Shown: piece by piece, positions 35,943 to 63,703 of the stretch | Layout of the letters: each line of letters starts with the position of its first letter | Position numbering within the stretch: the first letter of the stretch is position 1 | From: a virus | Reading direction: 5' to 3' (one strand) | DNA: 64,000 nt | IMG/VR virus record: IMGVR_UViG_3300014152_000001 | Location: 1 to 64,000 of that record | Translations under genes and position numbers: made by a program | Notes under the pieces: model-generated | Databases searched by the model: none | The model's input: the letters and a program-made list of their open reading frames with translations, nothing else | Told to the model about the DNA's origin: nothing

Positions 35943-36332
35943 GTGTCAGCACAAAAGAGATACTACCAAAATCACAAAACCGCAATGCTACAGAAGAGTA
36001 AAGACTACTATTGGAGCCACAAACCAAAAATACAAAGGGAACAAAAAGAGTATCGGGAGCAAGTTCGTATACAAGTTTTTACTCATTATGGCGGCAATCC
36101 ACCCAAATGCGCTTGTTGTGGGGAGAGCAGAATCGAGTTTCTCACTATAGACCACATCAACAACGATGGTGCAAATCAACGGAGACGTATATGGGGCCAG
36201 AAAGTATCTGGTTTTGGATTCTATGCGTGGTTAGTTAGAATGAACTTTCCTGAAGGCTATCAAGTTTTATGTTTCAACTGCAACTGTGGCAGAGCACATA
36301 CTTTAAATAAGGTATGCCCTCATAAACAGTAG
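35943..36332 (+). CDS. HNH-like endonuclease, paralog 6
   Basis: CACCGE..IEFLTIDHINNDG...YQVLCFNCN..CPH. Confidence 0.82.
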   Translation: MSAQKRYYQNHKTAMLQKSKDYYWSHKPKIQREQKEYREQVRIQVFTHYGGNPPKCACCGESRIEFLTIDHINNDGANQRRRIWGQKVSGFGFYAWLVRMNFPEGYQVLCFNCNCGRAHTLNKVCPHKQ

Positions 36333-37673: not shown

Positions 37674-38396
37674 ATGCCAATGGGAGACTATACAGATTTC
37701 GCTGATTGTGTGTCTAAGAACAAATCGAAAGACGACCCGAAAGCCTACTGCGGTTATATCAAGAACCAGATAGAAGGGGGCAAAAAGAAAGAAGAGTGTC
37801 TGGAAGCCACAGAACACGAAGCCTACCATCTTGAAGAAGAGGTTAAGAAGTTGGAATCATTAGCAACCTGTCCAAATTGCGGTTCTTCAGTCGCTCCTTC
37901 ACCCGAAGCCCCCGGCCCCGGTGGATTCTACACTTGCGATAAGTGCGGCAAACTCTACAAGAAAACAGAAGAGACAGACCGCCAGACAAGACTACCAAAG
38001 GGTGTTCGCCATACCGTAGAAAGGATGGGTGGAGAAGACTGGACTCCAGAGAGCGAGATAGAGAAGGCCAAAGCAGAGTTCTTGAATACACTAAAGGCGA
38101 CCATTGATGAAATGACACTGATGGCAAAGGACGTTGGTTACAGCAACGTATCCGAGAAGACTTCACCAACTCCGTCAACCTATATGTATGAGGTCAAACA
38201 ACCGATGGCTGATGTCTTCGTAAAGCAGGCCAAGGGCTTCGGTGTAGAAGTCAATTGGTTCAACACAACTATGGACGAACTCCAAGACATCGTGAAGAGT
38301 GCCAACAAGTTCTTTACCGATGCTGGCTGGAACTCCAAAGAGACAGTCAAAGAGTATGAGAAGCACGCCAAGAAGTGGGGCAAGGACTTCACCTAA
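37674..38396 (+). CDS. Acidic modular protein with Zn ribbon
   Basis: N-terminal DFADCV.KN....DP.AYC motif, CPNCG..CDKCG, EE-delimited modules. Confidence 0.7.
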   Translation: MPMGDYTDFADCVSKNKSKDDPKAYCGYIKNQIEGGKKKEECLEATEHEAYHLEEEVKKLESLATCPNCGSSVAPSPEAPGPGGFYTCDKCGKLYKKTEETDRQTRLPKGVRHTVERMGGEDWTPESEIEKAKAEFLNTLKATIDEMTLMAKDVGYSNVSEKTSPTPSTYMYEVKQPMADVFVKQAKGFGVEVNWFNTTMDELQDIVKSANKFFTDAGWNSKETVKEYEKHAKKWGKDFT

Positions 38397-38428: not shown

Positions 38429-38857
38429 ATGGAATACAAAACTTCTGAAGAGAAGAGAGCCTACCAAGCAGACTACGCCAAAACACATAAGGAAGAGAAA
38501 CAGGCTTACGATAGGAAGTATTGGAAAATCCGTTATGCTAAAAATAGCAAGCAATACTTGGAAAACAGAGCGAAAGCGACAAGAGAACGGAAACTACTTG
38601 TCCTAAGTCATTACAGTAGTAATCCGCCCAAGTGTGCTTGTCCACCTTGCGGAGAGACCATTATCGAATTTCTCTCAATAGACCATATTATCCCTATTGG
38701 TAATAAAGCGAGAGACAATCAACTAGGCACGCGACACGGAAGCAATCTCTACGGCTGGCTCATTAGACACAACTTTCCAGAGGGCTTCCAAGTGCTCTGT
38801 ATGAATTGCAACTTCGCCAAAGGACACTACGATAAATGTCCTCACGAGAGACTGTAG
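38429..38857 (+). CDS. HNH-like endonuclease, paralog 8
   Basis: SIDHIIP...YGWL..HNFPEGFQVLCMNCN..CPH. Confidence 0.82.
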   Translation: MEYKTSEEKRAYQADYAKTHKEEKQAYDRKYWKIRYAKNSKQYLENRAKATRERKLLVLSHYSSNPPKCACPPCGETIIEFLSIDHIIPIGNKARDNQLGTRHGSNLYGWLIRHNFPEGFQVLCMNCNFAKGHYDKCPHERL

Positions 38858-38888
38858 GTTTAAATAGTCCTAACCCCTATCTCTACTC

Positions 38889-38942: not shown

Positions 38943-38979
38943 AAAAGCCCTTATATAGTCGGCTGTCCAATTAAGTCTC

Positions 38980-41325
38980 ATGAGCAGTGATGGTGCTAGA
39001 CGACCTGAAGAGGCTTTCGGCAAGACGACTCCATATGCCACCTGTCCAATCTGCCACGCCTTCATGCTAACTGAAGAGTATGACAAACACATGGCTCAAA
39101 ATCACTCACAAGAACAACGAAACAAATATACCCCAAAAGATGAAGAGAGTGGACCACAGGGCCACTTCTATGGTGATGTCTGGTCGAAGTATGAGGCCAC
39201 ACAAAGTCCGGCTTATCAACTCACCCAAGACGAGTTGGACAAGATTACTAATGAAGCGTGGGAAGGAGAAGGTTGTGAAGATTGTCGAAGCATAATTCAA
39301 AGCACCGAGATGGATAAGAAGGGCAACTATGCCATCTATCCTACATCAAGTCAAGTCGGACACATGAGCGACCTCTTCGGATACCAAACCGAGCCATCCA
39401 TGCCTACCACTGGTTATCTAGACCCAGAAGACCCCAAATGGCAACAGTCGGTTGAGCACATCCAAGAGCGACAGAAGACCCCGAAAGGGGTAGGAACCTT
39501 TGGGCCACAGTCTGGAATGACGAGAGACGAACCCACTCGTGATGAATGGCAAGTGACCAGTTATCTAGACAGCGTTGGTGTGACCTATATCCATAAGATG
39601 AAGTTAGGAGAACTAGACTCTACAACAGAGAAGCCAAAGGTTGAGTATGACCTCTATCTTCCAGACCTAGTTATGGCCATCGAAACCTCACCGGGTTGGC
39701 ATGAGGGTGGGCCACAAGCAGGAAGATTTCCACAAGTAATTGAGAATGACCACTTCAAAAAGAACTTTGCTGAAGAGCATGGAATAGACTTGGTGAGTTT
39801 CGACCCTGCTCAGGGAACGGAAAAGTTTATCAACGAAACCCTAGTGCCCAAGTTGAGGGCTGTGGGTGTGAATGCCTTTGAAGTGCCTACAACAAAGAAC
39901 GAAGAAAAGGAGAGGCTGGTATGGTGTATGGATTGTGGTGGTCTCTTTGATGACAAACCATCTCTGAACACACACTTCCAACAGACTGGACATAGTTCCG
40001 TAGGCGAAGGGACGGTAGAGAAGTATGAAGAGTTTGAGAAGGGCAATCCCTTCAATCAGCAATACATCTACCGAGAAGAAGACACGCTCCCAACATCTTG
40101 GCTTGCTCCGGTCTTCAAGTATGAGGGCTATGGGAAGGGCGAAGAGGAAGGTGGTGGAAGATTCCCAGACCCCGCTAACCATATAATGGGACCGGGAGTT
40201 GAGGTCAAGAAATGTCCTCATGGTAATGGTGTCTTCGCTACTCGTGACTTCAAAGAAGGAGAACTAATTTCAAGTTTCAAATCCCCATTTGTAAAGGAAC
40301 TTCCCGACCCTGCTCGTGGATGGGCCACTCTAAGAGTGGGAGACCTGTGGTGGGAAGAGCCAGCATCAGGAGAAGAGGACGAATGGGCCAACTTCTTAGA
40401 CCATGAGAAGTCGCCTAACTCTGTCTTTGTCAACTTCAACTTTGATGAAGGGACGGGAGACCTTATGACGACCCGACCTATCAAAACAGGAGAGGAAGTC
40501 TACATCGATTACGGTGCATACTCACCAGAGAACATAGGCGATGTCAGCGAAGACTTCGCCCCAGAAGACCTACCCCCAGAAGTTGTTCCTGCGGTCCCAG
40601 AGACGACAACTCTACCACCCACAGAGCCAGAAAAGGACTTAGGACAGGAAACAGCAGGATACGATTGGGATTACAACGTGAAGTATCGAGAAAAGCCTAT
40701 TCTTGAAGAGCAGTCTGGAATCAACCAGAATATTCCGACTGGAATATATTCCAGAGTGGAACCTCTTGCCTTTGACCAGTCCCAAAACGTGCCCAGATAC
40801 CCAGAGCGTGGGAAGGTCAATACCATAGAACAAGAGAGTGGTGGTGAAGAGTTGGCGGCTGATAGTCACCTGTTCCAAGAACAAGAGGAAGGTGGAGTCT
40901 ACCTAGCCTGTCCGAAATGCACTGGCGGTGGCGGCTTCTACAATAGGAGAGGCGATAAATGGATTACCTGCCCAATGTGTGGTGGAACGGGTAGCGGAGA
41001 GAAGCAGTTCGATTGGCCTGAAGACGAGAGAGACACCAAAAACGAGGGACGATGGGACGCACCAACACCAGACAAACAGAATGAAGCCGAGAAGATGGCC
41101 TACTATCAGTTGGCTGACGAAACAGGAGACTACATAATGAAAGCAAGAGAAGACGGCTCTCTCACAACACCAGAAGCCGATGCTCTAATGGCTCTACAAA
41201 CTCAAGCCAAAGAAGCAGTATTAGTAGACAATCTGGAGAAGGCACAAGAAATACTGGCTAAAATGGCAGAACTTGTTACGACTAAACTGGGAGTTCAAGA
41301 CCTAGACGTTGAAGGACAGCAGTGA
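38980..41325 (+). CDS. Multidomain protein: C2H2 ZnF, PD-(D/E)XK (Vsr/DUF559-like) nuclease, SET domain, DnaJ-type Zn finger
   Basis: YDLYLPD...AIE..GWH; GNGVFATRDFKEGE...ANFLDH..SPN...TRPIKTGEEVYIDYG; CPKC.G.G..CPMCGGTG. Confidence 0.8.
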   Translation: MSSDGARRPEEAFGKTTPYATCPICHAFMLTEEYDKHMAQNHSQEQRNKYTPKDEESGPQGHFYGDVWSKYEATQSPAYQLTQDELDKITNEAWEGEGCEDCRSIIQSTEMDKKGNYAIYPTSSQVGHMSDLFGYQTEPSMPTTGYLDPEDPKWQQSVEHIQERQKTPKGVGTFGPQSGMTRDEPTRDEWQVTSYLDSVGVTYIHKMKLGELDSTTEKPKVEYDLYLPDLVMAIETSPGWHEGGPQAGRFPQVIENDHFKKNFAEEHGIDLVSFDPAQGTEKFINETLVPKLRAVGVNAFEVPTTKNEEKERLVWCMDCGGLFDDKPSLNTHFQQTGHSSVGEGTVEKYEEFEKGNPFNQQYIYREEDTLPTSWLAPVFKYEGYGKGEEEGGGRFPDPANHIMGPGVEVKKCPHGNGVFATRDFKEGELISSFKSPFVKELPDPARGWATLRVGDLWWEEPASGEEDEWANFLDHEKSPNSVFVNFNFDEGTGDLMTTRPIKTGEEVYIDYGAYSPENIGDVSEDFAPEDLPPEVVPAVPETTTLPPTEPEKDLGQETAGYDWDYNVKYREKPILEEQSGINQNIPTGIYSRVEPLAFDQSQNVPRYPERGKVNTIEQESGGEELAADSHLFQEQEEGGVYLACPKCTGGGGFYNRRGDKWITCPMCGGTGSGEKQFDWPEDERDTKNEGRWDAPTPDKQNEAEKMAYYQLADETGDYIMKAREDGSLTTPEADALMALQTQAKEAVLVDNLEKAQEILAKMAELVTTKLGVQDLDVEGQQ

Positions 41326-41503
41326 AATGCCAGCATTTCCGGTTATTGAAAAATCCCTCACAATCGCATGACCCTACCTTGTCAATCTTGTTGTAGAAGA
41401 CATTATGCCAAATGTTTGAGTATCGTTTAGACTTAACTCTGGCGAAGACCAAATCACCATCTTGTAAAATTTCAACTACCTCAGACATTGTGCCATCTCC
41501 CAT
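41282..41503 (-). CDS. SWIM zinc-finger protein
   Basis: V.S.......V.....SCDCEGF....KCWH. Confidence 0.7.
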   Translation of the reverse strand: MGDGTMSEVVEILQDGDLVFARVKSKRYSNIWHNVFYNKIDKVGSCDCEGFFNNRKCWHFTAVLQRLGLELPV

Positions 41504-41996
41504 AATACTCTTCTAACAATGGTTCAATAACTTCTCTAAGATGTTTATACCATCGCCCAACCTTTGCCTCATAAGCCATTTGACAACTGCCACAACAAGT
41601 TTCCAAGTCATCTGTCTTTCTTGAGCCATTAATTATAGCCCTATACAAATCAGTTCCAACTCTATCTTTAGTTCCACCACCATTCTTGTGATTGATGGTG
41701 AGCACAATAGGATTGGTTTCTCCACAATAAACACAACTCTTTCCAACAATTTCAAGTGCTCTCATCTTCACTTTCCATGTATGTCTATCTTGATATTCGG
41801 GATGGTTCTTGTTGAAGTTCTTCACATAAATCTGTCGTTTAGGCCAATTTCGCTTTGTTCGATTCACAGTATCAACACTGGTGCACATTTTACACTCTTT
41901 ACGATACCAGATTTGACCTTTTACACCAATACCATTAATGTAAAAATCTTCAACATTCTTTGTTCTACCACACTTTGAGCAAACTCTAGAAGTCAT
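41481..41996 (-). CDS. HNH-like endonuclease, paralog 9 (divergent)
   Basis: CSKC..CKMC N-domain; CVYCGE...LTINHKNGGG...CGSCQ. Confidence 0.72.
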   Translation of the reverse strand: MTSRVCSKCGRTKNVEDFYINGIGVKGQIWYRKECKMCTSVDTVNRTKRNWPKRQIYVKNFNKNHPEYQDRHTWKVKMRALEIVGKSCVYCGETNPIVLTINHKNGGGTKDRVGTDLYRAIINGSRKTDDLETCCGSCQMAYEAKVGRWYKHLREVIEPLLEEYYGRWHNV

Positions 41997-42531: not shown

Positions 42532-42833
42532 CACTTCAACCCCAGATTGCGTTTAATACCCGCGATATAGACATCCAACAGAGAAGAGAAGACATTAGTG
42601 AAGGCATAGACCTCATTAGTGAAGGCATAGACCTCATTCAACTCTTTATGTGACCAGAACTCGCACTCAGATTTATGGGCTATTGGAAAGAGATACCGCA
42701 AAAGAGTGGCGAGGGCTGGCCTTGGAATATACATTGTTTCCGTGTAAGTAGGGAGCATGATTTTGTCCTTCTCAAAGTCTCCTGTCTCAAGGTCTTTGAC
42801 GATTGCATCAATACACTTTTGGCAGAGTTTCAT
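42531..42833 (-). CDS. Hypothetical protein with internal 21-bp tandem duplication
   Basis: NEVYAFT x2; cattagtgaaggcatagacct repeated at 42593-42634. Confidence 0.6.
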   Translation of the reverse strand: MKLCQKCIDAIVKDLETGDFEKDKIMLPTYTETMYIPRPALATLLRYLFPIAHKSECEFWSHKELNEVYAFTNEVYAFTNVFSSLLDVYIAGIKRNLGLK

Positions 42834-43519
42834 TTTTCCTCATCCTCTTCCTCCTTCTCCGGCATCTTAGTCTCAAAGTCCTCAATAGTGAGGGGTGTTT
42901 TAGTCATGGCATCAAATATCTCCTCATCTGCCTTTATCTTCTCAGAGTGAAGCAAGATAGACCTAGCCAAGAGATAGAAGACCGTGGCTATGGCCTTTGC
43001 GCCAGTGTTGTTGGCCGGAATGCAGAGGTCCAAATCCTCGAAAGTGGCGTTGGTGTTGCAGATGGCAATAACGGGGATACCAACGCTTCCGGCCTCTTGC
43101 ATGGCCCTTCGGTCTCCTTTTATGGCTTCTCCTATCTTCTTCGGTATGCCATTGGTAGGGTCGGAGACAATCAACACATTTGCATCAATGTAGTATTTCG
43201 ATTGAGAGTTTGTAAGACAACCCGGCATGAAGCGATGAAAGACGGTGGGTATGAGAGTGGCCTTCTCAAATGCCGTAAGAGCGTTCTCAAATCTCGCATC
43301 AGTGGCATAGAGCACAGCACCTTCGGTCTTGACTATGAACTTACCAGCCGTGTCAAGCCGAGTAAGGATGGCGTTCACATCCAAAATGGGATTGCCACTT
43401 GGAGCGATGCTAGAGACATACTGAGCCATGTCTTTAGTAACTGCTCCCTTAATGCCTAAGTGTATACCAGTGGCCTTTAGTGGCTCTTCTGTAAGGGTTT
43501 TAGGTAGGATATGACTCAT
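42830..43519 (-). CDS. rps2: Ribosomal protein uS2 homolog (archaeal type, divergent)
   Basis: GIHLG, TKDM..YV, ILDV, RFMPGCLTN, VSDP..D..A..EA...GIPVIAICNT, DLCIPANNTG.KAI..VFYLLAR.IL, IEDFETK. Confidence 0.9.
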   Translation of the reverse strand: MSHILPKTLTEEPLKATGIHLGIKGAVTKDMAQYVSSIAPSGNPILDVNAILTRLDTAGKFIVKTEGAVLYATDARFENALTAFEKATLIPTVFHRFMPGCLTNSQSKYYIDANVLIVSDPTNGIPKKIGEAIKGDRRAMQEAGSVGIPVIAICNTNATFEDLDLCIPANNTGAKAIATVFYLLARSILLHSEKIKADEEIFDAMTKTPLTIEDFETKMPEKEEEDEEK

Positions 43520-44745
43520 TGTTTGCTTACCCCTACACATCTAACCAACTCGTCCAGTATGGCCTCTACATCGTTGGTGTGAGTCTTAGCACTGCCAGCA
43601 GGTTTCAATCCACCCCCTTCCATGATGGCAGGATTGGCACTTCTGAAGGCCTTGCCAATGTGGATTGTGCTGTCCCTTCCGCCCCTACCAGAGACATGAA
43701 CCCCATACTTAGGAATGGTGTTAATGACGAACCAAGTCTTATGGTTGGTGTTGGTAAACTTACTGCATAGTGCAGAACCCATGTTCCATTTGCTACTGAT
43801 GATGGTCACACCGAAGTCTGGGTAGTCTAGTTGGGTGTAGTTGCCCCGCTTCTCTACATCTCCCTTGTCCTTTCTGTAGTTCACAGTGAGTTCCAGAAGC
43901 ATCTTAGTGTTGGAGTTCTTTGGTGTTGGAGTGGTCGTTGGAAATACAGTCGGCTCCCAGAAGAGGTCGCCCTCAATCTTTTCCTTGTTGACCATCGCAT
44001 AGAAGTCTAGCCAATTAGGAATCTTCTCCATCTCTTTCATGGCTTCATAGCAGATGGGCGGGGCTTTGTTGAATATCATCCTTCGAGGATTGTGAAGCAA
44101 TTGGGCGTAGAATGCAAGAATGCTCCAATCGTAACTACTGTTCAGACTCTTGGAAGCAAGCAATCCCCGCATAGAAGGATGCTTGTTGAGGAGTTCTTGG
44201 AAGAGAGGGCCACCTTCTTTGGTCCCAGTTGCTACATCTCCTTCTAACCCTAGCAAGGCCCACTTCTCCATGTTGACTACCGACCATCCCATCCTCTTGG
44301 CAAATGCGTAAGAGATGCCAGTAGTGCAATTCTCGGTGGATGACTCATAGTAGAAGAAGGGGAGATTGGGGAAAGGAAACTTCCCTTGGAGATTGGCTAA
44401 AGTCTTTGCATACTCTCCATAGGCTTCTGCGGTTTCAACCAAAAGGTCTGGCGGGTGGTTGTCCAAGATGATGACATTGATGCCACTGGCCAAAAATGCT
44501 ACTGCATAGTTCAGCATCTCTTGACCGCTTCCAAGGTCTAGAATGAAGACCGTTGCTGGCTTCAAGTCCATTATGTCTGAGACATTCTTATCCGTCATCC
44601 CGAAGACATCCCAATCTTGCCACATAATAGTGTGGGTAGCCTTGGGAGCATTCAGGGAGATGGCATTATGGATGATGCGACAGGCGCACATCCCATCGGT
44701 ATCTTCATCGCTGAAGATTACGGTATCCTGATTTGCTTTACTCAT
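43516..44745 (-). CDS. DHH-family phosphoesterase (RecJ/GAN-like)
   Basis: DEDTDG, ILDLG, LDNHPP, GD, SGR, GGG...AG. Confidence 0.8.
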   Translation of the reverse strand: MSKANQDTVIFSDEDTDGMCACRIIHNAISLNAPKATHTIMWQDWDVFGMTDKNVSDIMDLKPATVFILDLGSGQEMLNYAVAFLASGINVIILDNHPPDLLVETAEAYGEYAKTLANLQGKFPFPNLPFFYYESSTENCTTGISYAFAKRMGWSVVNMEKWALLGLEGDVATGTKEGGPLFQELLNKHPSMRGLLASKSLNSSYDWSILAFYAQLLHNPRRMIFNKAPPICYEAMKEMEKIPNWLDFYAMVNKEKIEGDLFWEPTVFPTTTPTPKNSNTKMLLELTVNYRKDKGDVEKRGNYTQLDYPDFGVTIISSKWNMGSALCSKFTNTNHKTWFVINTIPKYGVHVSGRGGRDSTIHIGKAFRSANPAIMEGGGLKPAGSAKTHTNDVEAILDELVRCVGVSKQ

Positions 44746-60373: not shown

Positions 60374-61324
60374 CTACAATGACCTTAGACCTGTTAATTG
60401 CACGACACTCTCCGGGTATGTGATAACCGGGGCATAGCGAGCAGTGATAACAATGTCTATCGAATCGAAAGTAGGTTGAGGCCAGACATCCACACTGATG
60501 GGTCTCTTCGTTGCGAAGTAACCCAACGGTGCATATGAGGCTGAATAGTTGCTACCAGCCGCGGCAAGGACGTATGCGCGTCCATCGAAGCCGCTGTTTG
60601 GTAACAGTGGAGCCTGTGGGATGTTCGGGGTGACTATCTGCTTCAGTCCATACAACTGAGGTGCTGAAACCACTGTTCCAGTTCCCTGAGCGTATACGGG
60701 CTGTCCGTAGAAGAGTAGGGCGGCAAACTGAGGTATCCTTGACAGGTCTTGATGAGCCATTGGGTTCATCGCAATCGTGTCAGGTTCCAAAGCAAGGTTC
60801 TGTATCACTTGCTTCGCCTGAGTTATGTCGTTAATCCCTATTGTTCCACCATACGCAGTTGTCGTCCCATCCATGAACACTGAAGCCCCTGTAACGGGCT
60901 GTGCGATGCCGTGACCAGCCGGGGCATTGAGTGCTTTCTCAACGTCTTGGTCGATGGTCATAACGACCCGTCTCGCGGCTCGTTTCAGTTGGTCTTCTAC
61001 AATGTTCACTATTTGGTCTTCAATCAACTCTCTAGTGACTCGGACTCTCATACCCACCTTGTAAGGTGTAACGGTAATCGAGTCGTAAGGTGTGAAGTCA
61101 GCCATAATCTCGGCTCCCTCTGCCGTCTTTCCTATGACGGCTGTAGCACGAGCACCCTTCTGCTTCGGTATCGAAGCAGTCGCTCCAACCTTGATGAAGA
61201 AGTCCTGAAGTAGAGGCTTCAATGCCAAGTTAGGCATTGTGAGTTCTACTATCCTCTTCGCCAGTGCTGGATAGAATAGAGCACCTGTGTTAACTATTGG
61301 GAACTGTTCACGAGTCATAGCCAT
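60374..61324 (-). CDS. Major capsid protein (HK97-fold)
   Basis: AEGAEI, K.G....VTRELIED, I..NDI..A...I, IAMNP, LYGL..IVTP.IP; follows protease/scaffold/cement genes. Confidence 0.9.
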   Translation of the reverse strand: MAMTREQFPIVNTGALFYPALAKRIVELTMPNLALKPLLQDFFIKVGATASIPKQKGARATAVIGKTAEGAEIMADFTPYDSITVTPYKVGMRVRVTRELIEDQIVNIVEDQLKRAARRVVMTIDQDVEKALNAPAGHGIAQPVTGASVFMDGTTTAYGGTIGINDITQAKQVIQNLALEPDTIAMNPMAHQDLSRIPQFAALLFYGQPVYAQGTGTVVSAPQLYGLKQIVTPNIPQAPLLPNSGFDGRAYVLAAAGSNYSASYAPLGYFATKRPISVDVWPQPTFDSIDIVITARYAPVITYPESVVQLTGLRSL

Positions 61325-61339
61325 TCTCTTTCACCTGTT

Positions 61340-61771
61340 TTAGAACAGAAGTGCTACGATAGGCAAAGGCGTGGCAACATATGTGCCGCCCTGCAATGCG
61401 ATAAGTCTAGTTGGCCCTGCTATGGGTGCAACATAACCATCGGTGGTTGCAGAAACGTCAAGATACTGACCAGCCGTGACAGTAGCATCGCAAAGCACAG
61501 TTACCTCACCACGACAAATGACATCAATTGCCGCGTTGAGTTGACCAGAGGTTTGGGCAATTCCAAGTAGGAATCCGCCTGTTACCGTTGCGGCCACAAC
61601 TTCACAAGTGAAGTCTGCCGTAGTAGCCAACGTAACCAATGCTCCAATGTATATTGCTGTCCCGTTTACATTTGCTATCGCATTGAAAGAGAGAAGGAAT
61701 GAATCATTGTGGAAGGGTGCGCCTTCAAGAGTTCCGGGGAGCGAACTGCCGTGTGGAATTGGGATAGCCAT
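61340..61771 (-). CDS. Capsid cement/decoration protein (DUF2190-like)
   Basis: GA.V.L, LGIA, V..RG.V.V.....V.AG..L. Confidence 0.7.
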   Translation of the reverse strand: MAIPIPHGSSLPGTLEGAPFHNDSFLLSFNAIANVNGTAIYIGALVTLATTADFTCEVVAATVTGGFLLGIAQTSGQLNAAIDVICRGEVTVLCDATVTAGQYLDVSATTDGYVAPIAGPTRLIALQGGTYVATPLPIVALLF

Positions 61772-61784
61772 TTTCTATCTCACT

Positions 61785-62300
61785 TTAACCCGACAGTAGA
61801 CCCAGTTCCTTGAAGCGGCTTGAAGCACCTGTAATCTCCTTCCAGTAGTCTGGGAACTCCGCAGAGGCACCAAAGCCAGCGAGTGGACTCGTCTCTTCCT
61901 TGACCGCCCCAACGTTACCCTTTCCGGTAACTTCGGGAGCCTTGGCAGACGCTTCCCTTGCTTTCTTGGCTTCCTCTACCTTGCTCTTGACTTCCTGAAG
62001 TCTCGACTTCAGTTCTTCAAGTTTCTTGCGCTTAACTTCCTCTTCTTCCTTCTTTTTCTTTTGGGCTTCCTCGTTTTCCTCGCTCTTTGCTTCAGATGCT
62101 CTCCTCAAGGCAATCCTCTGAGACAGCAACGCGGCTCTTTTACCGCGAAGGTCTTGCTGTTCCAGTTTTATGTTGACTTCCTTGATGATGGACATCAGAC
62201 CATCGAGTTTGGATTCGAGAGAACCCATCTGCTTCACAATTTGGTCATAACTGAGAGCCTTGCCCTCAGATATATCACCAGAAGGTGCGACAGTAGACAT
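61785..62300 (-). CDS. Scaffolding protein
   Basis: Charged coiled coil between protease and capsid genes. Confidence 0.7.
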   Translation of the reverse strand: MSTVAPSGDISEGKALSYDQIVKQMGSLESKLDGLMSIIKEVNIKLEQQDLRGKRAALLSQRIALRRASEAKSEENEEAQKKKKEEEEVKRKKLEELKSRLQEVKSKVEEAKKAREASAKAPEVTGKGNVGAVKEETSPLAGFGASAEFPDYWKEITGASSRFKELGLLSG

Positions 62301-62301
62301 T

Positions 62302-62373
62302 TTAGTTAGTTTTTTCTGGGTAGTATAGCATCGCCTTAGCCATCAACACTACCATAAAAGTTGAAGGAGTCAT
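62302..62373 (-). CDS. 23-aa leader ORF of the capsid operon
   Basis: MTPSTFMVVLMAKAMLYYPEKTN; ATG 25 nt after tttaaata; stop 1 nt before the scaffold ATG. Confidence 0.5.
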   Translation of the reverse strand: MTPSTFMVVLMAKAMLYYPEKTN

Positions 62374-62422
62374 AGGTAGTTTATATAGGAGTTTCGCCTT
62401 ATTTAAACTCTGCGGTCAGGCT

Positions 62423-63703
62423 TTAGAGCCCCTCTTCATGAGACCGTTCCCTTCGATAGAAGTCGTAACCACAATTGGTGCATTTGAATGTATCCATACC
62501 CGTCTCGTCTGCATAGGTAGTCTGATAGGGTGTGGCAGTGCTTCCGCAATTGGCACAACTCTTAAGAGCCTCGTCCTTTCCTTTTTCCTTTCCCCTCTCC
62601 ACCAAAGGAAAGTCTTCTATTGAGCCGCCCTTGCCTTCGTCCTTCCAAGTAAGTGGGTCGCAAGTGTCGCAAACCAGATACTCACCAATCGGATGGGTTC
62701 CGGTCCTCTTATGGCAGAAGTCGCAGGAGCCACCTTCCTCGTCCTCTGGTTTGCACGGTGGCAGAGAATCTAGAAAGGCTTGCTCATCGGGAGTGAATCC
62801 TTCATCCTCTATGGGCTTGGCCGAAGGCAGACCTCTCTCCTTTTGAGAGTAATGAATATCAACTCGGTCTTCTGGATAGCCTTCCATCTGTATCTTAGCC
62901 ACTCTAAGAGTGATTTCAGACACTCCAATGATGGCCATTGCGACTGCATCAAAGGCCGAGATAAGCACTGGTGTCAAGTCCGGCATAATCACTTTAGCCT
63001 TCTTCGGGGTCTGTTTAGGCTGTAGAATGCCATAAGACTTGTCTTGAGGCGCAAATCTCTTCTGAAGAGCCCTGTCTAGACTGGCTTTGAAGCCAATCGG
63101 GGTCACTTCAGCCTTCTCGTAAGCCGGAATTGCGACCATGCTTTGCTCCAAAACCATCGGATGTCGGATGAGCATATCGAGACTTCCGCACCTTGGGCAC
63201 GGCAAATCGAGGTCATCTATCCCCGCTTCCTCTTCTTTCTTGCCCATTGCGGCAATGCAATTATCGCAGTAGGCTTGTGGAACTGCAATCTGAATACTGT
63301 TAAACCTCACATAGCCTAACAGAATCTTCTGAATGAGGCTCTCGTCAACGGTTTGACCAGCCCACAAGACCTTTCCAGTCTTCTCATCCTGTTCATCCTT
63401 CTCTACCCAAGCGTCTTCGACCTTACCGATGATTGAATCTACATGGTCGATGTCGTGGTCTTTCATCAGAGGAGCACCCTTCAGTTGGTCAGCGATGGCC
63501 TGAAGGTCTTCGATTGGGACACGCCACTTGTTTCTGTTCCTTGAGGTATCAATTGCCATGCCACCAAGGTTCAGAATGTGCGGAAACTGACCTGTGGCTT
63601 TGTAGTTTTTAATGAGTTCTTGGTATTCTTTTCCTGTAATCAGTGGAGCGATACCAGAACTGTAGCGAAATTTGAAGCCCCTGCCGTCAAGAGGATTAGT
63701 CAT
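62423..63703 (-). CDS. Prohead protease with C-terminal Zn-ribbon modules
   Basis: NRNKW, PLMKDH, IGKV, SI, EQS.VAIPAY..A. Confidence 0.8.
   Translation of the reverse strand: MTNPLDGRGFKFRYSSGIAPLITGKEYQELIKNYKATGQFPHILNLGGMAIDTSRNRNKWRVPIEDLQAIADQLKGAPLMKDHDIDHVDSIIGKVEDAWVEKDEQDEKTGKVLWAGQTVDESLIQKILLGYVRFNSIQIAVPQAYCDNCIAAMGKKEEEAGIDDLDLPCPRCGSLDMLIRHPMVLEQSMVAIPAYEKAEVTPIGFKASLDRALQKRFAPQDKSYGILQPKQTPKKAKVIMPDLTPVLISAFDAVAMAIIGVSEITLRVAKIQMEGYPEDRVDIHYSQKERGLPSAKPIEDEGFTPDEQAFLDSLPPCKPEDEEGGSCDFCHKRTGTHPIGEYLVCDTCDPLTWKDEGKGGSIEDFPLVERGKEKGKDEALKSCANCGSTATPYQTTYADETGMDTFKCTNCGYDFYRRERSHEEGL

Follow-up and report, generated by a model that had tools for sequence, protein, structure and literature searches.

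What does a SET domain do inside a viral protein whose other recognisable parts are zinc fingers and a nuclease? The question is raised by P0001, a modular zinc-finger/nuclease/SET protein of 781 residues encoded by an uninterrupted open reading frame (ORF; positions 38980..41325, + strand) in IMG/VR record IMGVR_UViG_3300014152_000001. The window studied here consists of the first 64 kb of that record, which is a single 105,748-bp virus genome with a direct terminal repeat of approximately 124 bp (1-124 / 105625-105748) and is rated 100% complete. A sequence-only reading of the locus had proposed that a SET-type methyltransferase is embedded with a PD-(D/E)XK nuclease and with C2H2 and DnaJ-type fingers in an archaeal virus protein, and that it might methylate host chromatin or other proteins on entry. 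We find a genuine SET domain that belongs to a distinct clade and was joined to the nuclease gene in this virus lineage. Our leading answer to the question, a tentative one to which we give slightly less than an even chance, is that P0001 acts as a DNA-tethered lysine methyltransferase on DNA-associated proteins, arising from a SET module taken into a syntenic gene.

A genuine SET domain in P0001

The SET domain in P0001 is genuine. Pfam family PF00856 matches residues 415-512 (nucleotides 40222-40515) across its full profile (1-105/105), with an E-value of 9.3e-11 and a score of 42.5 bits, the curated cut-off being 22.4. When the genome was searched in six frames, the same site scored 46.3 bits and no second copy emerged. 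On the basis of Pfam, alignment and model, the module spans residues 393-525 (40156..40554, +) and includes a conserved leader, R-F-P...GPG. All of the SET motifs listed in the sequence-only reading were located. The cofactor loop is present as G415-N-G417, with both glycines invariant in the clade described below. Motif III reads ANFLD474-H475-EKS-P479-N480, retaining the His and Pro-Asn of the N-H-(S/C)-x-x-P-N consensus with Asp474 at the position of the Asn. Motif IV reads G-E-E506-V-Y-I-D-Y511-G, and its Glu and catalytic Tyr are invariant or nearly so in the clade.

An AlphaFold2 (AF2) model of residues 395-530, built with 50 relatives, has a mean predicted local distance difference test (pLDDT) score of 90.5. 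The best Foldseek matches of this model are MLL1, SETD8 and vSET (3kma; template modelling (TM) score by target 0.81), with E-values of approximately 1e-6 to 1e-7 and a probability of 1.00; in total, 322 PDB matches were obtained at E ≤ 1e-3. When the clade profile was compared with the PDB, LegAS4/RomA, MLL1 and vSET were matched at E-values of 7e-11 to 1e-9, with Asp474 aligned opposite the canonical Asn of N-H-S. Profile and model together bear out the earlier claim that a SET domain is present.

The best single-sequence PDB match is vSET (A612L; PDB 1n3j, 3kma) of Paramecium bursaria chlorella virus 1, a 119-residue methyltransferase that acts on H3K27 according to the PDB titles (E 0.012, or 1.3e-9 by profile). 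Like the P0001 module, vSET is a virus-encoded minimal SET core, and GxG, His, Pro-Asn and the catalytic Tyr occur in both, although identity is only approximately 25%. In contrast, vSET stands alone as a protein, is encoded by a eukaryotic virus and has an Asn-His motif, whereas the module studied here has Asp-His and lies within a 781-residue protein of an archaeal virus.

An Asp-His clade in viruses and Nitrososphaerota

An exhaustive HMMER search with the SET module against 1.84 billion representative sequences returned 71 matches. Five of these are 50-67% identical and are found on viral-type contigs; the next group comprises free-standing proteins of 119-144 residues (33-45% identity), followed by remoter canonical SET domains. 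The viral and free-standing groups have a common signature, C-P-H-G-x-G-V-F-A ... W-W-x-E ... W-S-N-F-L-D-H-S-x-x-P-N ... G-E-E-x-x-I-D-Y. The Asp of the Asp-His pair is kept in at least 90% of the two groups, while the remote matches carry N-H-S. Within the viral clade, GxG, H475, P479-N480, E506 and Y511 are invariant.

One genome per prokaryotic species was scanned for W-x-N-F-x-D-H-x3-P-N by means of a degenerate DNA pattern, which occurred at 24 places. Fifteen of the 24 encode an Asp-His SET; all are in archaeal metagenome-assembled genomes (MAGs) whose labels read Nitrososphaerota, Thaumarchaeota or unclassified archaeon, and the contigs concerned reach 1.28 Mb. Nine places in bacteria (Herpetosiphon, Caldisericum and others) were discarded, as tblastn detected no SET there and their count equals the chance expectation. 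The small Nitrososphaerota proteins (for example MDA4121924.1, 128 residues) have the same signature as the viral module, CPHGxGVFA ... WSNFLDHSxxPN ... GEExxIDY, Asp-His included, at 37-45% identity; they differ in being cellular, chromosomal and single-domain. Many of the 15 archaeal MAGs carrying this small chromosomal gene originate from acidic soil or peat. In one subclade the cellular gene adjoins thermosome and DUF929 genes, and a short-chain dehydrogenase gene is also near. The cellular neighbourhood was considered as a clue to the target and set aside, since synteny is limited to subclades.

The Asp-His SET gene is rare among the archaea sampled: the clade profile matched the centre genome only, among 301 genomes of the phylum and 151 of the order, and PF00856 was found in one of 14 control genomes. 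The general statement that SET domains are uncommon in archaea holds for these samples. In a maximum-likelihood tree, the Asp-His clade stands apart from the Asn-His outgroups (support 93/92). The cellular and small metagenomic SETs form one clade (98/92) with the viral SETs outside it, and the P0001 SET groups with stand-alone and SET-plus-tail forms.

The sequence-only reading had noted an Asp where Asn is usual. The Asp is indeed present at position 474, but it is no one-off, being conserved across the viral and thaumarchaeal clade. On this pattern the substitution is a clade-wide trait as opposed to decay, because viral and cellular proteins alike retain Asp474, and with it GxG, His, Pro-Asn, Glu and the catalytic Tyr. 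A further position was noted at C412 (nucleotide 40213), three residues ahead of GxG, where most Asp-His members have Cys and their Asn-His relatives mostly Ser; co-variation of C412 with D474 (nucleotide 40399) is loose, with exceptions.

The structure of Smyd3 offers a guide to what the Asp might do. There, the carbonyl on the side chain of the corresponding Asn205 accepts a hydrogen bond from the alpha-amino group of the cofactor, and the backbone of His206 binds the adenine (PMC3105404). Since this contact uses the side-chain carbonyl, it is plausible by analogy that an Asp takes the same role. A different possibility is that the Asn-to-Asp change has rendered the SET domain catalytically inactive, leaving only a binding module, for SAM (S-adenosylmethionine) or a lysine-bearing peptide, for example. 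The Asn of this motif is essential in yeast Set1, for which N1016A is a null mutant (PMC3585878), and the literature searched yielded no characterised member of the Asp-His clade. We nevertheless consider an inactive domain quite unlikely, as decay would not leave Asp474 conserved in viral and cellular members along with all other catalytic residues, and an Asp can accept the hydrogen bond of the Asn carbonyl. An active enzyme is predicted because selection has evidently preserved the fold along with the cofactor loop, the catalytic Tyr and the pseudoknot residues, and we judge that the module is probably a SAM-dependent lysine methyltransferase.

A nuclease-SET fusion found in one virus only

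The SET module is preceded by a conserved family core (residues 56-312; 39145..39915, +) that is 52-68% identical across 15 aligned homologues. Residues 186-288 of this core are matched by PHROG 9084, annotated 'homing endonuclease', at an E-value of 2.3e-8. An AF2 model of residues 56-312 has a pLDDT of 74.5 and gave weak Foldseek matches. An exhaustive structural search aligned model residues 131-242 with the catalytic domain of I-Bth0305I (3r3p, Z 9.9), with NGO0050 (3hrl, Z 9.3) and with Vsr (1cw0, Z 9.2), over 88-106 residues. D224, E235 and H241 are invariant in 16 nuclease-family sequences, among 63 invariant columns overall. Judged by the model, the nuclease part (residues 186-297; 39535..39870, +), which is delimited by the PHROG match, the structural search and the invariant columns, is a Vsr-like branch of the PD-(D/E)XK fold. 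Its motif, D224...E235-T-S...H241, departs from the canonical D...(D/E)xK and is unlike both the EDxHD motif and that of Vsr. P0001 has the fold of I-Bth0305I and other Vsr-like endonucleases and matches a homing endonuclease family; it differs in that its nuclease belongs to a conserved syntenic core gene, as opposed to a sporadic homing cassette.

Three putative zinc modules are distributed along the chain. Finger A (39043..39105, +) is C2H2-like, C22-x2-C25-x11-H37-x4-H42, and was identified by its sequence pattern, with no Pfam match above cut-off; in homologues this module is placed elsewhere along the chain. Finger B (39925..39993, +) has the C2H2 pattern C316-x2-C319-x12-H332-x5-H338, and its zf-C2H2_2 match reaches 17.6 bits against a cut-off of 26.9 (E 0.0047). 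The DnaJ-type module (40909..40998, +) was likewise found by pattern and consists of two CxxCxGxG repeats (C644, C647, C664 and C667; C644PKCTGGG...C664PMCGGTG), with a DnaJ_CXXCXGXG (PF00684) match of 15.3 bits against a cut-off of 32.7 (E 0.025). The C2H2 and DnaJ-type fingers proposed earlier are therefore present as ligand patterns, whereas their Pfam matches fall below cut-off.

Behind the SET module, a Pro/Glu/Thr-rich linker (40555..40695, +) recognised by sequence comparison ends in the motif GYDWDYNVKYREKPILEE, which is common to the orthologues. It is followed by a conserved segment, residues 573-636 (40696..40887, +), with 70-83% identity to the orthologues. Beyond the DnaJ-type module, comparison of homologues delimits a C-terminal helical tail (EGRWD...YYQLADE...; 41044..41322, +). 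This tail is common to some of the nuclease homologues and occurs whole in a SET-only protein (P0027), while P0024 has the EGRWD motif only. A structure search of residues 560-781 against a protein atlas gave TM scores below 0.32 throughout. No paralogue of any P0001 module was found elsewhere in the virus genome, and tblastn of the whole protein against GenBank phages returned no match.

Homologues of P0001 fall into 21 clusters that have residues 10-311 in common at 48-69% identity (74% for one truncated match). They also have residues 573-636, and some the C-terminal tail; none has the SET part. A related contig (L001) encodes a 578-residue orthologue in the same syntenic place, with the same neighbours and the same block of uS2 and RecJ genes. 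The sister virus G433, a complete genome of 105,335 bp with terminal repeats, has a syntenic orthologue of 671 residues in which other Cys/His-rich modules stand at the place of finger B and SET; the finger B module of G433 is located in a different protein. The linker motifs that flank the swapped region, FIYREE... and GYDW-x-YN-x-KYREKPILEE, are conserved in G433. When this SET was sought in proteins of 429-1367 residues among 5.8 billion protein clusters, only P0001 was found. GC content is even across the modules of P0001, a uniformity that gives no hint of a recently acquired foreign segment.

Since nuclease orthologues lack SET and the SET of sister viruses is a separate gene, the embedding of SET with the nuclease is, on gene comparison, a lineage-specific fusion. 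The earlier proposal of a SET domain embedded with a PD-(D/E)XK nuclease thus stands for this protein and does not extend to its orthologues. As the fusion is seen in this virus only, a chimeric assembly or a sequencing artefact has to be considered. We give this next to no weight, as an identical protein of 653 residues (nuclease, SET and tail) occurs on a separate 5,258-bp contig, the reading frame is open throughout with uniform GC, and the flanking linker motifs agree with those of the orthologues.

A side observation concerns the motif GYDW(D/N)YN-x-KYREKPILEE (40657-40710, residues 560-577), which lies at module boundaries. P0001 has one copy, and the G433 orthologue (L034) has at least one and possibly two, since two distinct hits fall within a single frame there. 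The motif may be a linker for module exchange or a short binding motif.

SET genes of the sister viruses

In G433, SET is a separate gene of 171-178 residues in a stand-alone frame, approximately 22 kb from the nuclease orthologue. In G433 and five related viral contigs, the SET gene is part of the head cluster, in the same orientation as and directly upstream of homologues of g_64633, g_63856, the protease-like g_62423, the scaffold-like g_61340 and the capsid gene g_60374; the capsid protein of the five contigs is 85% identical to that of the virus studied here. The SET of this virus lies away from the head cluster, between small genes and replication-type genes.

The head-cluster location raises the possibility that the substrates of SET are viral (the capsid, the scaffold or another part of the virion) or that SET is itself head-associated, in which case the fusion with the nuclease would be secondary and have little bearing on the target. 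The arrangement in G433 and the five contigs points to late expression together with structural genes. Set against this, gene position is weak evidence, SET is found outside the head cluster in the virus that carries the fusion, and all characterised small SETs target chromatin-type proteins. We regard a virion target as rather unlikely, and as the foremost of the alternatives.

In four of the five contigs, those with a resolved fusion frame (L026, L027, L028 and L031), SET is fused behind a complete S-adenosylmethionine decarboxylase (AdoMet_dc) domain, with PF02675 matched at E-values of approximately 4e-27 to 2e-23; contig L029 encodes the same AdoMet_dc-SET form of 270 residues. One such fusion, with PF02675 and SET, lies at L026:7273-8073, and proteins P0106 and P0028 are of the same kind; a stand-alone SET gene lies at L030:9465-9980. 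Read from sequence, the fusions retain the pyruvoyl-forming Ser as well as the His and Cys. In the two complete genomes, that of this virus and that of G433, no AdoMet_dc was found, and the literature searched contains no description of an AdoMet_dc-SET architecture.

These fusions suggest another reading of the Asp-His clade, as a distinct SET branch with a remodelled cofactor pocket that is tied in viruses to SAM decarboxylation. Such enzymes might, for instance, use a changed cofactor, decarboxylated SAM, or a changed substrate, a polyamine-like amine instead of a protein lysine, and the fusion in P0001 would put this chemistry on DNA. The nearest SET relatives do include full AdoMet_dc fusions with their Ser, His and Cys intact, and the residue that differs is the contact to the amino-acid end of the cofactor. 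However, AdoMet_dc is absent from this virus and from the complete G433, the cellular Asp-His SET genes are not beside polyamine genes, and no SET-fold enzyme of such chemistry is known. We consider this reading very unlikely.

A final alternative takes up the timing proposed in the sequence-only reading. The whole protein could travel inside the capsid and reach the cell together with the DNA; it would then resemble a 'polyvalent protein', an effector active early in infection, and would cut or mark the chromatin of the host on entry. vSET is reportedly packaged in chlorovirus particles. The location of the sister SETs among head genes supports a packaged early effector too, and the C-terminal tail, being common to nuclease homologues and SET-only proteins, could be a docking signal. 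Disparate activities are combined in one polypeptide, as in phage polyvalent proteins, where unrelated enzymatic and zinc modules likewise occur in one chain and are shuffled between relatives (Iyer et al. 2017, PMC5512222). Nevertheless, Pfam and PHROG scans of P0001 revealed no polyvalent hub domain: MuF, ArdC-N, zincin peptidase, ART, SNF2 and N6A methylase are all lacking. The gene does not adjoin portal or terminase genes and has no portal/MuF link, and the tail has neither a recognisable fold nor a paralogue in the genome. Moreover, polyvalent proteins are scarce in archaea, and the paper describing them does not mention a SET domain (PMC5512222). A packaged effector appears to us unlikely, somewhat more so than a virion target.

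The virus genome and its host

Genes for TerL, for a capsid protein of HK97 type, for a scaffold-like protein and for a family B DNA polymerase (PolB) are present in the virus, as is one for a RecJ of archaeal type. The capsid, scaffold-like and protease-like genes lie at 60374-63703. Downstream of the P0001 gene, on the opposite strand (42830-43540, -), lies a gene for uS2 of the archaeal/eukaryotic type, with a TIGR01012 match of E 1.3e-38 that is below the equivalog cut-off. The viral uS2 is 53-80% identical to the copies in sister viruses; in a word-indexed search its closest cellular relatives are from Nitrososphaerales MAGs, at 37-38% identity. A TATA-like box, cTTATATA (38949..38956, +), was read from the sequence approximately 24-31 nt 5' of the ATG of the 781-residue ORF. 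It is possibly an archaeal promoter giving a short leader or none. On account of uS2 (TIGR01012), the archaeal-type RecJ and this TATA-like box, the assignment of this tailed virus as archaeal in type is supported, in agreement with the sequence-only reading.

Genome size and PolB had led us to consider the magroviruses. A thaumarchaeal (Nitrososphaerota) host was judged the better guess, and a reasonable one, because the nearest cellular uS2 is from Nitrososphaerales and the cellular relatives of SET are from Nitrososphaerota.

The surroundings of the ORF form a dense patch of cassettes resembling homing endonucleases. Small genes at 35943-36332, 38429-38857 and 41481-41996 match HNH or endonuclease VII PHROG families, with a weaker match at 37674-38396. 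A second TATA-like box (tttaaata) is located at 38857-38870, just past the stop of the HNH gene, with no obvious long ORF downstream.

Discussion

We propose that P0001 represents, in this virus, a syntenic gene conserved across a group of archaeal tailed viruses of approximately 105 kb, probably infecting Nitrososphaerota. The product of that gene would combine zinc fingers and a Vsr-like nuclease with a variable middle of interchangeable small modules, and in this virus alone the variable middle would have taken in the SET module of the group. The module would function as a SAM-dependent protein-lysine methyltransferase in which Asp474 still holds the amino group of the cofactor, while the DNA-binding fingers and the DNA nuclease would keep the enzyme on DNA. 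Its targets would be lysines of DNA-associated proteins, with histones and Alba, as chromatin proteins of the host, the most likely ones; host or viral DNA would in consequence be packaged or read differently during infection.

Action on or near DNA is predicted because SET shares its chain with DNA-binding fingers and a DNA nuclease. DNA-associated host proteins are favoured as targets because the characterised small SETs act on chromatin proteins. In addition to vSET, the archaeal Go1-SET of Methanosarcina mazei acts on the chromatin protein MC1-alpha (Manzur and Zhou 2005, reviewed in PMC3980110). Go1-SET can be likened to the P0001 module by description, as a small SET in an archaeal context acting on a DNA-associated protein; it is cellular and is not among the nearest relatives.

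Several observations count against a DNA-tethered methyltransferase. The Pfam matches of both zinc fingers score below cut-off. The Asn position matters for activity, as the Set1 null mutant indicates, the change there being to Ala and here to Asp. The sister SETs are found among head-assembly genes without a DNA-binding partner, which suits a target in the virion or its assembly no less than one in chromatin. The closest relatives include AdoMet_dc fusions, hinting at SAM or polyamine metabolism as opposed to chromatin.

Animal PRDM proteins combine a PR/SET domain with arrays of C2H2 fingers, so that a SET-fold writer is tethered to DNA by C2H2 fingers. The design of P0001 follows a similar logic, with no evolutionary link to PRDM; its fingers occur singly at scattered places, and the chain also includes a nuclease.

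A viral SET protein is not new in kind, since annotations of such proteins already exist for uncultured tailed phages and many giant viruses. To our knowledge, virus-encoded SET enzymes have been characterised for eukaryotic viruses only, namely chlorovirus vSET, and no description of a SET domain in an archaeal virus or phage was found in the literature searched. What appears to be new is an uncharacterised Asp-His clade common to archaeal viruses and Nitrososphaerota, its mobility among three architectures (stand-alone, decarboxylase-fused and nuclease-fused), and two fusions, the unique one of SET with a nuclease and zinc fingers and that of AdoMet_dc with SET in relatives.

Should both the methyltransferase and its target prove ordinary, P0001 would count as a further accessory gene, its product being a modular viral protein. 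Between them, the three natural forms of the SET module already make an experiment that could show what the module requires to work. If the module methylates archaeal histones or Alba, it would be the first instance in which a virus places marks on archaeal chromatin, and protein methylation in Nitrososphaerota, where a matching, unstudied cellular enzyme exists, would become more accessible.

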